DNA of 64,000 bases from Myxococcota bacterium (GTDB lineage: Bacteria > Myxococcota_A > Polyangia > Nannocystales > Nannocystaceae): NCBI GenBank assembly GCA_039028615.1, contig JBCCHT010000003.1:256001-320000 (forward strand). The letters are read 5' to 3'. Positions 3 through 4,668 of this stretch are shown here, one piece after another (the first letter of the stretch is position 1; every line of letters begins with the position of its first letter). Below the pieces are notes generated by a model. The model had not been told where the DNA came from, did no database searches, and saw only the letters and a program-made list of their open reading frames with translations. The position numbers and the translations under genes were made by a program.

Positions 3-1877
3 ATGGCGATGACGCGCGGGACGGCGATCACGGCCACGGCCGAGGTCTTGAGCCCCGACGACCAGGCGGAGTTCGACGACTGGTCTTTCGCGATGTCGGC
101 CGACGCCGACTCCCTGCGCCTGACCAGCGTCGCCAGCCTCACCCCCACCGGGCGGAAGATCTGGGACGCCGCCGCCACGAAGCCGGTCGCCGCGCCCCGG
201 CTTCGCAAAGAGGTCGATGCCTCGCTCACCGTCGCGCTGGACATCGCGGCCGCGCTGGGCGAAGCGAAGGGGCACACCCTGCGGGAGGGATCGTTGGGAG
301 ACCTGGCGCGGACCTTCCAGAACTGCGGCGTGACCTGCCCGATGTTCAGCGCGCTGCGTTGGCCGGCCTCTGCGGTACGGACCCTCGCCCCAGAGGTCAG
401 CAGGACGGGCACCGGGGTCGCGAGCGCACAGCTGGTGATGCCCTCCTCGAGCGAGCCGGCTCGGGTCGCGGTCGCACTGGTCGGCGATGACCTGCCCGCC
501 GCCGAGGTACTGAAAGGGGCAGTCGGAGTGCTGGCGCGCCCGGGTGCGGCCGCCAAAGTCGAGGAAGGAACGCACGCGGGGCATCCGGCCTTGTTGGTCG
601 GCAACGGCATCGAGCCCGCCACCATCTTCGAGCTGGGCGCCGAGTCGCCCGAGCCTCCGGCGCTGCTGCGGGCGCAGGGGCGCCTGCCCGCGGAGCTCGG
701 GGGCGGCTCGCTCCGCTCCGCCATGCACCGAGCTGGCCCCGCGCTGACCTTCGAGTTGGTGTTCGGCCCCGGCAAGCTCCGTTCGTTGCTCGACTACTCG
801 GCGGCGACCTGGGACTCGCCGCTGGGATCGGGAGAGGCCACCAAGGCCAGTCGCTGTCTGCACGAGCTGGCGTGGGTTCTCGTGGACGACGTCAACTCCA
901 TCGCGATGGTGGCGGTCGACCAGCGGGCCACCACGGCCGTGACCGCGGCCGGCAAGATCGGGCCTCTGGTCACCTGTGCCGCCGAAGACCCCCAGCTCGC
1001 AGAGGCGGCACGAGGCTTGGCCTCGCTGATGACCGCGACGATGGCCGGGGCCTTGCTCGAGGTCCCCGACTACCGCGCGGCTCGGGCGGTGTTGCAGACG
1101 GGGTGCCCCGAAGGACGCTCCGACGGGCCCGCGTGCGAGCGACTCGCCGCCATGGCCGATGTCGCGATCCCCACGCTGCAGCAATTCTCGGTGCCCGAGC
1201 AGTGCCGCCCCGAGTACGACCCCGGCTTCGGTATGCCCGTGGTGGTCAACAGCGACGGAATCTTCATCGCGGGGCGCAAGGTCGCCGCCTCGAGCTCGGC
1301 CATTGCGGCGGCGGTGGTCGAGCAGATGAGCATGGACGGACGCAGTGAGAAGGTCGGGTCCACGCTCGCCCTGTGGGTCGAAGGGTCGTTGCCGTTTTCC
1401 GTGGTCGAACCCGTCGTCGCGGCGGCGGCGAGCCTGGACTCCGAGCTGGGGGCGGTGATCAACGACGAGTCCGGTAAGGCGATGCGCGTCGGGTGGGCGC
1501 GAGAGTGGCCGAAGACGGTGAGCATCGACTGGAAGGTCGACCCGACCTACGTGCCCGAAAAACGCTTCGGTGGCGGGCTCTATGACCCCGAGGAGCGAGC
1601 GCCCGGCTCTACCGGGCCCAAGGTGTCGCACACCCTGCTGCAGACCCGCGGCGGCTTGGTGGTGGTGCCTCCCGGGGGAACGACGCTGGCCGTGCCCAAC
1701 TCGTCGGCGCTGTCCGCCTATGTCGACGCGGAGCAATCCGCGGCCGGGCCGGGGCGGACGGTGCAGCTGACGTGGAAGGTCGCGCCCGATGTGCCCTGGA
1801 GCGAAGTGGCCGAGGTGCTCACGCAAACCTGCACCATTTTCGGTGCGGTGGTGCAGACTCCCGCGGGCACTCCATGA
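3..1877 (+). CDS. Hypothetical protein with C-terminal ExbD/TolR-like segments; probably 5'-truncated by the window edge
   Basis: Long ORF with GC3-biased codons. VVVNSDGIFIAGRKV...LWVEGSLPFSVVEPVVAAA and VAPDVPWSEVAEVL resemble ExbD periplasmic domains. Confidence 0.6.
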   Translation: MAMTRGTAITATAEVLSPDDQAEFDDWSFAMSADADSLRLTSVASLTPTGRKIWDAAATKPVAAPRLRKEVDASLTVALDIAAALGEAKGHTLREGSLGDLARTFQNCGVTCPMFSALRWPASAVRTLAPEVSRTGTGVASAQLVMPSSSEPARVAVALVGDDLPAAEVLKGAVGVLARPGAAAKVEEGTHAGHPALLVGNGIEPATIFELGAESPEPPALLRAQGRLPAELGGGSLRSAMHRAGPALTFELVFGPGKLRSLLDYSAATWDSPLGSGEATKASRCLHELAWVLVDDVNSIAMVAVDQRATTAVTAAGKIGPLVTCAAEDPQLAEAARGLASLMTATMAGALLEVPDYRAARAVLQTGCPEGRSDGPACERLAAMADVAIPTLQQFSVPEQCRPEYDPGFGMPVVVNSDGIFIAGRKVAASSSAIAAAVVEQMSMDGRSEKVGSTLALWVEGSLPFSVVEPVVAAAASLDSELGAVINDESGKAMRVGWAREWPKTVSIDWKVDPTYVPEKRFGGGLYDPEERAPGSTGPKVSHTLLQTRGGLVVVPPGGTTLAVPNSSALSAYVDAEQSAAGPGRTVQLTWKVAPDVPWSEVAEVLTQTCTIFGAVVQTPAGTP

Positions 1878-1983
1878 CGCGGTGACTCATCGTCGCGCCT
1901 TCGGGCCCGATGCACTCGGTCGGCGATCATGAACAGGTCGCGGGCGCACGAGTCGTCGGGCTCGATTATTTTCGGCTTCGCAT

Positions 1984-2011
1984 TTGACAAACCAATCCCA
2001 TTGCGTAAGTT
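1984..2011 (+). promoter_or_regulatory. Sigma70-type promoter for the leader/tRNA operon
   Basis: Perfect TTGACA (1984-1989), 16-nt spacer, TAAGTT (2006-2011), in an AT-rich patch of a very GC-rich sequence. Confidence 0.7.
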
Positions 2012-2031
2012 GGCTCGACAGGAAGACGACA

Positions 2032-2145
2032 ATGGTTGCCCACGAGTCCCTCGCCCACGTTTTCGAGTTCTGTCACGCCACGGCGTACGACAGTTCGTCT
2101 TCGTATGCGTACGTGCTCGGCAGTCGATCGTCATCTCGCTGCTAG
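2032..2145 (+). CDS. Putative Ser/Tyr-rich leader peptide, 37 aa: MVAHESLAHVFEFCHATAYDSSSSYAYVLGSRSSSRC
   Basis: Hand-translated (below the ORF-track size cutoff). AGGAAG Shine-Dalgarno-like sequence at 2020-2025. Contains 9 Ser and 3 Tyr codons and lies directly upstream of Ser/Tyr tRNA genes. Confidence 0.75.
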   Translation: MVAHESLAHVFEFCHATAYDSSSSYAYVLGSRSSSRC

Positions 2146-2181
2146 AGCACGTCGTGCACGACGGCCACGGGCCGTTTCGTT
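2111..2181 (+). promoter_or_regulatory. Putative attenuator (alternative hairpins plus weak terminator)
   Basis: ACGTGCTC(2111-18) pairs with GAGCACGT(2145-52). ACGGCC-ACG-GGCCGT(2161-75) is followed by TTCGTT. Competing pairings exist for 2156-2166. Confidence 0.5.
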
Positions 2182-2279
2182 CGCGTCCCCGCCACGGGTG
2201 ACGTAGCCGGACTCGTTCGCGCTGCGCCCGATGGGTCGTCGGTCGTCGAGCGGGCCTCGTCGTGCCCAAAAACCAAAGA

Positions 2280-2363
2280 GGAGGGGTGGCCGAGTGGTAA
2301 GGCAGCGGCTTGCTACGCCGTCGTCTGGTAATGCCAGCGTGGGTTCGACTCCCACCCCCTCCG
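2280..2363 (+). tRNA. tRNA-Ser(GCT)
   Basis: Acceptor GGAGGGG/CCCCTCC with G73; anticodon arm GCGGC-TTGCTAC-GCCGT; long variable arm CTGG/CCAG; T arm GTGGG-TTCGACT-CCCAC; CCA not encoded. Confidence 0.95.
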
Positions 2364-2369
2364 CTCCAT

Positions 2370-2456
2370 GGAAGGTTGGCCGAGCGGTAAGGCACTCGCT
2401 TGGAAAGCGACGGTCCGGTCGAGAGATCGGCGGGGGTTCGACTCCCTCACCTTCCG
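2370..2456 (+). tRNA. tRNA-Ser(GGA)
   Basis: Acceptor GGAAGGT/ACCTTCC with G73; TCGC-TTGGAAA-GCGA; variable arm CCGGTC-GAGA-GATCGG; T loop TTCGACT. Confidence 0.93.
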
Positions 2457-2458
2457 CC

Positions 2459-2541
2459 GGAGGGTTCGGCATTGGCAGGCCAAGCCGCCTTGAACGCGGT
2501 GGGTCCTTCGGGGCCTGGGGGTTCGACTCCCTCACCCTCCG
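2459..2541 (+). tRNA. tRNA-Ser(TGA), atypical D arm
   Basis: Acceptor GGAGGGT/ACCCTCC with G73; GCCGC-CTTGAAC-GCGGT; variable arm with TTCG loop; T arm GGGGG-TTCGACT-CCCTC. Confidence 0.9.
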
Positions 2542-2550
2542 CCCTCATCG

Positions 2551-2636
2551 GGAAGGAATGTCATTTGGTTTGACGCGCAGTTTCGAAAACTGTCGGGGTA
2601 CTGCCCCAGGGGGTTCGATTCCCTCTCCTTCCGCCA
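2551..2636 (+). tRNA. tRNA-Ser(CGA), A at position 8
   Basis: Acceptor GGAAGGA/TCCTTCC with G73 and encoded CCA; D stem GTCA/TGAC; GCAGT-TTCGAAA-ACTGT; variable arm GGGG/CCCC. Confidence 0.92.
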
Positions 2637-2637
2637 C

Positions 2638-2723
2638 CCGCGGGACGCCCATTCGGTAGGGCAGCGGACTGTAAATCCGTGGCGCTTTGGCGCATGCAGG
2701 TTCGAATCCTGCCCCGCGGACCA
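2638..2723 (+). tRNA. tRNA-Tyr(GTA) with C1:G72
   Basis: Acceptor CCGCGGG/CCCGCGG with A73 and encoded CCA; GCGGA-CTGTAAA-TCCGT; variable arm GCGC-TTTG-GCGC; T arm GCAGG-TTCGAAT-CCTGC. Confidence 0.93.
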
Positions 2724-2772
2724 TCCCATCAAAACGTCCGGCCACGGCGAGACCGCGGCGGGTCGTGAGCAC

Positions 2773-2811
2773 GCGGAGGCGGCCGAGTCGACGGGGCTCG
2801 GTCGTCTCCGC
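2773..2811 (+). terminator. Strong stem-loop closing the tRNA array
   Basis: GCGGAGGCGGCCGAG pairs with CTCGGTCGTCTCCGC (15 bp, two G-U pairs on the + strand); no U-tract. Confidence 0.45.
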
Positions 2812-2820
2812 CCGCTGGCT

Positions 2821-2940
2821 GCGTACGAGCAGCATCGCGCCCACGCTCCGGCCGGCGATGCGGGCGTAGGCCTGCTCCCACTCATCGAGCGCGTCGGCGA
2901 ATTGGCCGACGCAGTAGGCGGCCTCGCCCTCCCGGTAGGG
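2821..2940 (-). pseudogene. TPR-like gene remnant
   Basis: Start-less frame PYREGEAAYCVGQFADALDEWEQAYARIAG looks like a TPR helix pair and is preceded in frame by TGA. Confidence 0.4.
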
Positions 2941-2991
2941 GCGCGACGAGAGTGTTCATCGGTAGATTCCGTGGGGCGGCGGCCGTGGGTC

Positions 2992-4668
2992 TCAGCGGGG
3001 TCGACAGGCACGAGTGACGAAGATGTCGGCATCGCCCGCGTTGGGCCCTCCGAGGTCTCCGCGAGAGAACCCGGCCGCGTAGATCTCACCCTGGGGACCG
3101 ATCTCGACGGCCCGAAGCGTGTCGGAGGCAGGTGTACCGAGCAGCTCGACCCACTGCAGCTCGCCCTCGGGGTCGAGCGCGACGATGCTCGCGTCTTCTT
3201 CCCCGACCACGATGCCGTCGCCGAAGTCTCCGAGGCTGTGCCCGACGACGTAGACCGTGCCCTCCGCGTCTACGGCGATGTCGAGGGCGACGTCGTCGAC
3301 GCTGGTGCCGAACTGCGAAGACCACTGCTTTTGTCCGTCGGGGTCGAACTTGACCACGAAGTTGTCCTGGCCTCCGAGGGGGTCCTGCAGGTCGAAAGAC
3401 CCGAGGGTGGTCCCGGTGACGTACACGTTGTTGTCCGCGTCCACGGCGACGCGGGCGGGGTTGTCGTCGGCTTCCCCGCCGACCTGCGCCGCCCACAGCA
3501 GCACGCCATCACCGTCGAACTTGGCGACGAAGGCGTCGCTGCCGCCCCACGCCGTTCGCCCTTCGAAGGACTCGCCCGTGAGCCCGGCGACGATGATGTC
3601 GTCGTTGCCGTCGACGGCCAAGCCGTACGCGACCTGGAACGAGCGGCCACCGAGCTGTCGATTCCAAAGCTCGGTGCCGTCGGTGTCGAGCTTGATGAGC
3701 AGCATGTCGGACGAGCCCGTGTTCGGCGTGCCGTCGTAGCTGCCCGTGGTGTAGCCGGCGAGATAGCCCCGGCCGTTGCTGCTCAGCCCCACCGACTGGA
3801 TGCGGTCTTCCAGCTCGGTGCCGAACTGGAGGGTCCATTCGACGTCTGCGCCCGCGTCATAGCGGACCGCGATCCCGTCCGACATCCCCAGGTGGGTGTG
3901 GCCCTCGAGCGCGCTCTCGGTTCGGCCCGGCACGAGAAAGCTGCCGTCGGCGTCGACCGCGATGTCCTCGCTCATGTCGAAGAGCATCGTGCCGAGCTGG
4001 CGGGAGAACAGCGGGGTGCCGTCGGGCTGGAACTTGCTGACGAAGAGGTCGGAGTCGCCGGCGGAGGCGTTGCCGTCGAGCGGGCCTTCGACGCGACCGG
4101 CGATGTACAGGTCACCCTCGTCGTCGATGGCGATGCCGCGGGCCTCGTCGGAGCCGGGCGTGCCGTACTGGATCCGCCAGCTGTCGCACGCCGGAGCACA
4201 GGTGTCGACGTAGCAGTCGGTGGACTCGCAGTCGCCATCGTCGAGACAGGCTTGGCCCTGCGCGCAGGGCCCACAACCGCCTCCGCAGTCGACGTCGGTC
4301 TCGTCGCCGCTGAGCAGGCCATCGTCGCAGCTGGGCAGGGCGCAGGCGCTGGTGCAGTCGTCGGTCTCGTCGTCGTTGCCGTCGTCGCACTGCTCGCCGG
4401 GGTCGACGACTCCGTCGCCGCAGGTGCCATCCCCGGTGACGTCGGCCTCGGTCTCGAGACCGTCCCCACTATCGTCGGTGAGGACGGATGCTGTCGTGCC
4501 CTCCGACGTCTCCGCGGTCCCCGAGCTGTCGTCCTCGGCGGGCGTGGGCCCCTCGGCGTCGGTGAAGCATCCGCTGGCACTCATCACCCCCGCGAGTGCG
4601 ACGGTGGCCATTCCACGCAGACGTGAGGGGAGCAGATCTTCGAGGTCGAGGCTCGTCGTGGTTTTCAT
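2992..4668 (-). CDS. Lipoprotein with myxococcal Cys-rich repeat and SBBP beta-propeller repeats
   Basis: ASGC lipobox; CGDGVVDPGEQCDDGN; repeated D.FV.KFD.DG...W..Q.G blades. Confidence 0.85.
   Translation of the reverse strand: MKTTTSLDLEDLLPSRLRGMATVALAGVMSASGCFTDAEGPTPAEDDSSGTAETSEGTTASVLTDDSGDGLETEADVTGDGTCGDGVVDPGEQCDDGNDDETDDCTSACALPSCDDGLLSGDETDVDCGGGCGPCAQGQACLDDGDCESTDCYVDTCAPACDSWRIQYGTPGSDEARGIAIDDEGDLYIAGRVEGPLDGNASAGDSDLFVSKFQPDGTPLFSRQLGTMLFDMSEDIAVDADGSFLVPGRTESALEGHTHLGMSDGIAVRYDAGADVEWTLQFGTELEDRIQSVGLSSNGRGYLAGYTTGSYDGTPNTGSSDMLLIKLDTDGTELWNRQLGGRSFQVAYGLAVDGNDDIIVAGLTGESFEGRTAWGGSDAFVAKFDGDGVLLWAAQVGGEADDNPARVAVDADNNVYVTGTTLGSFDLQDPLGGQDNFVVKFDPDGQKQWSSQFGTSVDDVALDIAVDAEGTVYVVGHSLGDFGDGIVVGEEDASIVALDPEGELQWVELLGTPASDTLRAVEIGPQGEIYAAGFSRGDLGGPNAGDADIFVTRACRPR

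Follow-up and report, generated by a model that had tools for sequence, protein, structure and literature searches.

Leader-peptide transcription attenuators of bacteria include trpL, hisL, thrL, the ilv leaders, pheL and pheM-pheST. T-boxes are leaders of another kind, which bind uncharged transfer RNA (tRNA) directly, need no translation and control the genes of synthetases, transporters and biosynthetic enzymes. The tRNA genes themselves are usually treated as housekeeping genes controlled by the growth rate, and to our knowledge it is largely unknown how bacteria match the supply of individual tRNAs to the demand. The locus considered here is a compact array of five tRNA genes for serine and tyrosine, together with the small reading frame preceding it, in a 64,000-nt stretch of myxobacterial DNA (hereinafter the window; assembly GCA_039028615.1, contig JBCCHT010000003.1, written below as G000:C3:256001-320000).

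Several described systems come close to this locus; the papers cited here and below are represented by extracts, and the statements on them hold for those extracts. Attenuation by a leader peptide is exemplified by pheL (PMC3082878). The trn operon (L-array) of Anabaena sp. PCC 7120 is described as remaining unexpressed until translation comes under stress, with TrcR as its repressor (PMC8421152, PMC10272220). Dense tRNA array units have been reported in Mycobacterium, Acidithiobacillus, Firmicutes and phages (PMC4758250, PMC5966550, PMC12803027), and the definition of such a unit calls for no fewer than 20 tRNA genes, with 2 or more per kb (PMC4758250). The literature search, in which subscription journals were thinly covered, yielded no paper that connects clusters of tRNA genes to leader peptides or attenuators. 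One possible precedent, PMC8297930, turned out to be unrelated as far as its extract goes.

The array of the window appears to be a spare, co-transcribed Ser/Tyr set, which is likely gated by a leader whose Ser and Tyr codons gauge the speed of the ribosome. That the set is a spare one follows from the source genome (G000, a 12.27-Mb assembly in 94 contigs with a G+C content of about 68%). ARAGORN found 86 tRNA genes in G000, including canonical twins of all five array tRNAs, which are ordinary in sequence and pass the Rfam tRNA model. The canonical Ser(GCT) gene lies on contig C17 and Ser(TGA) on contig C11, while Ser(CGA) and Ser(GGA) stand together on contig C83. The canonical Tyr gene, with G1-C72 and U8, is located on contig C6 inside the usual Thr-Tyr-Gly-Thr cluster with Trp nearby. 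Thus, the five array genes are a second, supplementary set duplicating the canonical one. A first-pass annotation, made from the letters of the window, had already taken the array for a supplementary, stress-inducible set and had proposed a whole-genome tRNA scan as a check. With canonical genes elsewhere, the array is not the sole Ser/Tyr set and the supplementary part of that claim stands; induction by stress is something to which only the leader points. Two further Ser calls made by ARAGORN in G000, at C5:75919-76005 (GGA) and C21:26368-26439, have no Rfam match and look like false positives.

In the 64-kb window, ARAGORN detected exactly five tRNA genes, all on the plus strand within the 444 nt from 2280 to 2723. 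The first is tRNA-Ser(GCT) at 2280-2363 (84 nt to G73, CCA not encoded; Rfam 61.6 bits), followed by tRNA-Ser(GGA) at 2370-2456 (87 nt, then CC and the next tRNA; 52.1 bits) and tRNA-Ser(TGA) at 2459-2541 (83 nt; the D arm is unusual and CCA is not encoded). The fourth, tRNA-Ser(CGA), occupies 2551-2633 (83 nt, with A8, an A/T-rich D arm and CCA at 2634-2636), and the last is tRNA-Tyr(GTA) at 2638-2720 (83 nt, with CCA at 2721-2723; 56.9 bits). Neither Ser(TGA) nor Ser(CGA) reaches the Rfam tRNA threshold, whether in the scan of the window or genome-wide, and in both the 11-24 pair is not C-G. Counted from the discriminator base (or the encoded CCA) to position 1 of the next tRNA, the spacers measure 6, 2, 9 and 1 nt and therefore leave no room for promoters inside the array. 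CCA is encoded in the last two genes only.

The identity rules for tRNA-Ser come from work on E. coli and comprise the long variable arm, G73, the first three acceptor pairs and the U33 loop. All five array tRNAs have a long variable arm. The four Ser genes carry G1-C72, G2-C71, A3-U70 and G73 and present a Ser anticodon in a 7-nt loop with U33, as bacterial class II tRNA-Ser does. U33, a purine at position 37, GG in the D loop and a normal T loop are found in the array tRNAs. The Tyr gene has the long variable arm, A73 and GUA anticodon of a bacterial tRNA-Tyr, but C1-G72 and A8 stand in place of the bacterial G1-C72 and U8; the usual U8 is likewise absent from Ser(CGA), which has A8.

The composition, spacing, serine identity elements and position of the encoded CCA had all been described correctly in the first-pass annotation. 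It had also noted that a Leu tRNA, rRNA and integrase are lacking in the vicinity. This agrees with the ARAGORN scan, which gave no Leu tRNA in the 64 kb, with the absence of rRNA, since the whole-window Rfam gathering scan returned only tRNA matches, and with the location of the 10 PF00589 (integrase) matches of G000, none of which is on contig C3. The two sub-threshold Ser genes, the C1-G72 and A8 of the Tyr gene, a promoter-like site and a Ser/Tyr-rich small frame are features beyond that description. A stop-free frame running through four of the tRNA genes (2231-2659) was rejected as a chance frame in G+C-rich DNA, because three of nine arrays keep only about half of their length open (282 of 497 nt at locus L003 and 177 of 358 nt at both L006 and L052).

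The small frame upstream of the array lies at 2032-2145 on the plus strand and consists of 37 codons and TAG. Of the last 20 codons, 11 encode Ser or Tyr. The frame has nine Ser codons, namely AGT (two), TCT (two), TCA (one), TCG (three) and TCC (one), and its Tyr codons are TAC (two) and TAT (one), so that none of the five anticodons downstream lacks a cognate codon. When the small frames of random 450-nt windows from G000 were scored in the same way, 11 or more Ser/Tyr codons turned up in 5 windows of 6000 in one run and in 4 of 4000 in another. A Shine-Dalgarno-like AGGAAG (2020-2025, plus strand) is separated from the ATG by 6 nt. Further upstream, a promoter-like site occupies 1984-2011 on the same strand (TTGACA at 1984-1989, a 16-nt spacer and TAAGTT at 2006-2011); it begins 48 nt ahead of the frame and is the only conserved one. 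A generic promoter scanner missed it because the second hexamer fits the consensus at only three of six positions. The same layout (TTGAC[A/G], 16 nt, TAnnnT, 9-22 nt upstream of the ATG) is found at all eight leader-bearing loci examined. Between the upstream gene (3-1877) and this promoter-like site, a terminator-like hairpin with a T-rich tail (1949-1974, plus strand) sets the gene apart from the array promoter. It is the sole terminator-like site in 1700-3100, but shuffled sequences average 1.1 such sites, so it is weak on its own.

We read this layout as a leader-peptide attenuator, with a putative promoter, a short frame with regulatory codons at its end, a spacer and the controlled genes following one another. 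As in known attenuators, the short frame with its start codon and ribosome-binding site stands right behind the promoter, judging from the sequence layout, and the cluster of codons for the linked amino acids (the 11 of 20) is kept in nine of 10 related arrays.

These related arrays were sought in a set of 41 genomes (G000 and 40 relatives). Near full-length matches with 74-82% identity over about 443 nt were obtained in three genomes of the same genus, and partial matches in others. According to ARAGORN, G001, G003 and G005 have the same five genes in the same order, and G002 has a reordered version. Reduced versions occur in G004 and G017, the latter showing only Ser(GCT) and Tyr. G019 and G043, from another genus, have four genes without Ser(CGA), and G006 has five Ser genes and no Tyr. 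In total, the array is present in six of six genomes of the genus. When the three most unusual genes were used as the query, 16 of 73 family genomes gave matches at E <= 1e-8, and these represent 5 of 17 genera. The G006 array (locus L008) shows unusual enlarged D arms in three of its five Ser genes and has spacers of 1-74 nt.

Of 10 related Ser/Tyr arrays, nine, from four genera, have a homologous frame upstream, which is 33-39 codons long and rich in Ser and Tyr in its tail. Its Ser positions alternate between TCN and AGY in orthologues, which argues for selection on serine codons rather than on a string of nucleotides. The exception is a 12-nt box within the leader (2116-2127) that is nearly invariant among relatives. 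As a search pattern with one mismatch allowed, this box was too unspecific and was abandoned, giving 10-105 matches per strand over the 73 family genomes compared with 3-71 for the reversed control.

The natural replacement of Ser/Tyr by Leu/Pro/Tyr in another genus offers the strongest evidence that the leader tracks the tRNA content. There, the arrays of six large genomes, most of them complete, comprise 7-13 tRNA genes for Pro, Leu and Tyr, with the Tyr genes belonging to the same C1-G72 lineage. In the five leaders scored at these loci, Leu, Pro and Tyr account for 15-16 of the last 20 residues, the sixth leader having been judged by eye. None of 6000 random windows reached 15 Leu/Pro/Tyr. 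The arrays in question (loci L056-L061 and L071 in genomes G059-G063 and G066) hold up to five copies of the C1-G72 Tyr gene and have T-rich spacers.

The same relationship is seen within G000. Each tRNA block was scored for its own amino-acid set in the small frame upstream and compared with 4000 random windows. As high a score was reached by no window for the Met-Phe block, by one for Cys-Gln, 8 for Arg-Leu, 9 for Asp-His, 44 for the seven-gene array and 91 for Thr-Phe-Asn-Lys-Lys. The six canonical clusters of G000 showed no leader match (931-4000 of the 4000 random windows scored as high), and for each of the 47 single tRNA genes, more than 15 of 3000 random windows did so. Every tRNA of the seven leader-bearing blocks (the Ser/Tyr array and the six others) appears to have a twin elsewhere, and the blocks jointly cover 17 of the 20 amino acids, with Glu, Gly and Pro missing. 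By sequence comparison, the amino-acid make-up of the leader follows the downstream tRNA content, both within G000 and across genera. Concerning the individual blocks, the seven-gene array (Ala, Trp, Cys, Val, Ile) is located at C27:171191-172216 of G000 with an upstream small frame rich in Ala, Trp, Val, Ile and Cys. It is flanked by two 73-nt tRNA-like genes with the Ser anticodons CGA and GGA and no long variable arm.

The codons used in the leaders are also unusual. In 1157 long open reading frames of G000, AGT, TCT and TCA make up 2.4%, 2.2% and 1.2% of the Ser codons, 5.8% together. Five of the nine Ser codons in the leader of the window belong to these rarest Ser codons of the genome. 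In eight related leaders, the three codons account for 25 of 65 Ser codons, and TAT for 15 of 28 Tyr codons as compared with 15% genome-wide. The binomial values overstate this enrichment, because the codon usage of G000 was taken as the null at every locus and the loci are related to one another.

A simpler explanation would be a constitutive extra tRNA operon that adds to the dosage of Ser and Tyr tRNAs, the small frame being a small protein or a conserved 5' leader and having no sensing role. Clusters of tRNA genes with their own promoters are indeed common, and no terminator/antiterminator pair can be defined at the array. Such an operon would not account for a leader composition that tracks the tRNA content in seven G000 blocks and across genera, including the switch to Leu/Pro/Tyr, nor for the enrichment of rare cognate codons, nor for the canonical clusters and 47 single tRNA genes that have no such frames. 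We therefore regard constitutive expression as unlikely. That the array is inducible is strongly suggested by the conserved, codon-matched leader.

The gating by the leader could proceed as follows. A shortage of charged or intact Ser or Tyr tRNA would hold up the ribosomes on the final codons of the leader. Stalling would cause the RNA of the leader and spacer to refold, or would block access to it, and more transcripts would reach the tRNA genes. The five tRNAs would then be released by RNase P, 3' trimming and CCA addition. Once decoding is restored, the ribosome would clear the leader and the output would fall, which would close the feedback loop. The sensing part of this scheme is well supported by the comparison of leaders. 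The output may be provided by a terminator without a U tract, by Rho-dependent termination masked by the stalled ribosome, or by RNA processing.

As to the structures available for the output step, the untranslated spacer between the leader stop and the first tRNA extends over 134 nt (2146-2279, plus strand) and contains a weak hairpin (2161-2175) followed by TTCGTT. A candidate hairpin at 2111-2152 on the same strand would pair leader codons 27-29 (2111-2118) with a segment at the stop codon and just beyond (2145-2152). It holds the final Ser codons in its loop, contains the nearly invariant box and appears in the fold of the free RNA. For 2012-2285, the stability of the free fold is unremarkable (z = -1.64). 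Constrained folds, in which a ribosome was mimicked at the stop codon or four codons earlier, revealed no canonical attenuator switch common to the eight loci. In the other genus with Leu/Pro/Tyr arrays, the spacer is about 180 nt long, conserved and highly structured, with eight compensatory pairs and helices that involve leader codons; a U-tract terminator was not found in it.

Several results weigh against the gating described above. No canonical intrinsic terminator was recognized between the leader and the tRNAs, where a generic scanner also found none. A terminator-like hairpin with a T-rich tail occurs at two of eight loci, which is no excess over shuffled sequences, 18-53% of which contain at least one such site. 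At most loci, a helix connects the conserved box with the region of the stop codon; for eight loci, RNAalifold gave a 14-pair consensus version of this candidate helix, with a covariation term of +0.78 and thus no covariation support. The spacer varies from 83 to 340 nt among loci and aligns poorly. At the G006 array, no recognizable Ser-rich leader was found in the 700 nt upstream. The codon matching is imperfect: the leader of G017 contains TCG and TCT with an array of Ser(GCT) and Tyr, and the leaders of G019 and G043 retain TCG without Ser(CGA). As to the trigger, more tRNA would presumably be no remedy for plain amino-acid starvation. Among the sequencing runs listed for 1900-2800, no RNA run is present, and the best DNA match is a single marine metagenome run.

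The charging of the array Tyr is a further point on this side. G1-C72 is the rule for bacterial tRNA-Tyr (PMC5370408), and since C1-G72 breaks this rule while the sole tyrosyl-tRNA synthetase (TyrRS) is of the bacterial type, it is uncertain whether the array Tyr is charged. G000 contains one bacterial-type TyrRS (TIGR00234, 385 bits), one tryptophanyl-tRNA synthetase (TrpRS) and one match to the N-terminal domain of the seryl-tRNA synthetase. The spare tRNAs thus lack synthetases of their own, and the idea of a dedicated second synthetase for the odd tRNAs was rejected on the basis of the same single matches.

Comparison with relatives indicates that the array genes are under selection as tRNAs and look functional. 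A class II cloverleaf is retained in seven orthologues of Ser(TGA) and five of Ser(CGA), with compensatory changes at five pairs in each. For the Tyr gene, all 31 distinct related copies listed retain C1-G72, A8 and A73, and the acceptor stem varies in a compensatory manner. Furthermore, the set of anticodons is kept up by the recruitment of other tRNA bodies. The CGA gene of G002 (L005) has a GGA-type body (84% compared with 65% identity), and the GGA gene of G004 (L007) has a CGA-type body (78% compared with 71%). Such recruitment and anticodon switching argues for a role in decoding.

These data bear on another explanation, namely that the tRNAs are used outside the ribosome, in a tRNA-dependent pathway that modifies, for instance, peptides or the cell wall, or that the Ser/Tyr/Cys-rich small frame is the precursor of a modified peptide. 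Two non-canonical Ser tRNAs, a non-canonical Tyr tRNA and a Ser-rich leader tail ending in Cys would be in line with it. A non-ribosomal pathway would hardly call for all four Ser anticodons, which are kept and even restored by switching and make sense only for decoding. No genes of biosynthetic enzymes adjoin the array, and the leaders of other blocks match quite different amino acids. The reading of the leader as a peptide precursor was dismissed for the latter two reasons, and the explanation as a whole is highly improbable.

The array copies evolve faster than the housekeeping ones by sequence comparison. Between G000 and five congeners, the array Tyr is 80-94% identical and the array Ser genes 65-93%, while the housekeeping Tyr is 95-99% identical in the four of the five congeners where it was found. 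The set could be an inducible replacement for tRNAs damaged, for example, by toxins or nucleases of competitors, by phage defence or by toxin-antitoxin systems, with bodies that escape the damaging agent; this would extend the leader-gated reading and is suggested here only tentatively. The faster evolution of the array copies would fit such a role, as would the differences between the spare and housekeeping copies at the acceptor stem (C1-G72 in Tyr), position 8 and the D arms. Extra tRNA should help against the loss of tRNA and not against the lack of an amino acid. Mycobacterial tRNA arrays have been called a putative anti-defence system (PMC12803027). However, in two of five pairs the array tRNA has the same anticodon loop as the housekeeping copy, and in the other three only one loop position (32 or 38) is changed, so nucleases acting on the anticodon loop would probably cut both sets. 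This likeness weakens the idea of escape from toxins and counts, with the points listed above, against the proposed function. A toxin, immunity or repair gene was not found adjoining the array.

In a wider form of the idea, the seven blocks of G000 would make up a genome-wide, self-gauging system for tRNA replacement, in which each block, through a small frame made of the codons that its own tRNAs decode, would supply just those tRNA species at which the ribosomes falter. The divergent tRNA bodies (C1-G72 in Tyr, A8 and odd D arms) would survive whatever had disabled the housekeeping copies and confer inducible immunity to tRNA-targeting toxins. This is a speculative proposal, possible rather than probable.

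The origin of the array from a phage or mobile element, as a remnant or cargo, should be considered together with its surroundings. The flanks of about 1 kb on each side differ among the six genomes of the genus (G000-G005), so that the cassette stands between different genes in each of them. Only the arrays of G019 and G043, both from one other genus, have flanks in common, and a tblastn search with two flanking proteins gave no matches at the loci of relatives. The unshared flanks suggest that the cassette of promoter, leader and array relocates, which speaks for such an origin. Apart from the lack of an integrase on contig C3, no mobile-element domains were detected among nine neighboring open reading frames scanned, and no flanking repeats were found around the array. 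Phage records gave only a generic 44-nt tRNA-Ser match, in seven records. The G+C content of the array (65%) is close to that of the genome, and the array is a constant feature of the genus. A phage or mobile element is thus an improbable source. Concerning the neighboring genes, the upstream open reading frame (3-1877, plus strand, 624 amino acids) has no Pfam or NCBIfam match. The downstream one (2992-4668, minus strand) is convergent with the array and resembles an SBBP beta-propeller lipoprotein with a myxobacterial cysteine-rich repeat.

If the leader-gated reading is true, the locus would represent direct, species-specific feedback on the tRNA supply, in which the logic of the trp and his attenuators is put to a new use. 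The presence of a second, divergent copy of most tRNAs in these very large genomes would thereby be explained as well. The spare C1-G72 Tyr in a genome with only a bacterial-type TyrRS would bear on the rules of tRNA identity and on the design of orthogonal tRNAs. The idea of a leader acting as a gauge can be tested in cultivable relatives.

Compared with the described systems, the array shares with tRNA array units the dense packing of supernumerary genes, some of them non-canonical, which duplicate a housekeeping set. With five genes in 444 nt and two amino-acid identities, it is dense but too small to be counted among them. As described, tRNA array units are often carried on mobile elements, and the array considered here has no mobile-element genes nearby. 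The Anabaena trn operon is similar in that a housekeeping subset is accompanied by a supernumerary and apparently conditional subset arranged as an operon. In the published description, the Anabaena array has 26 genes, is located on a megaplasmid, spreads horizontally, is controlled by a protein repressor and responds to general translation stress. Unlike it, the myxobacterial array is a chromosomal block of five genes and one of seven such blocks, each with a leader specific to its own amino acids.

The array Tyr resembles the tRNA-Tyr of candidate-phyla-radiation bacteria, for which C1-G72 with a long variable arm and a TyrRS of the archaeal/eukaryal type have been described (PMC5370408). 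In both cases, the long variable arm is kept along with the archaeal/eukaryal C1-G72 pair. Unlike those bacteria, as far as they are covered by the extract, G000 has only a bacterial-type TyrRS and also keeps a normal G1-C72 tRNA-Tyr.

A T-box and the present leader are alike in that a cis-acting leader reports on the state of one specific tRNA species and controls the same decoding pathway; no T-box was found in the window by the Rfam gathering scan. The closest likeness is to the leader-peptide attenuators, with which the locus shares a short frame right behind the promoter, the relevant codons near the end of the frame and downstream genes tied to the same aminoacyl-tRNAs. Like the thr and ilv leaders, the leader of the array is multivalent, combining Ser with Tyr. 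It differs from the attenuators in that a U-tract terminator/antiterminator pair is not definable at the array. The genes it would control are tRNAs rather than biosynthetic enzymes or synthetases, and, unlike the attenuators, it is enriched in rare synonymous codons that cover each of the anticodons downstream.

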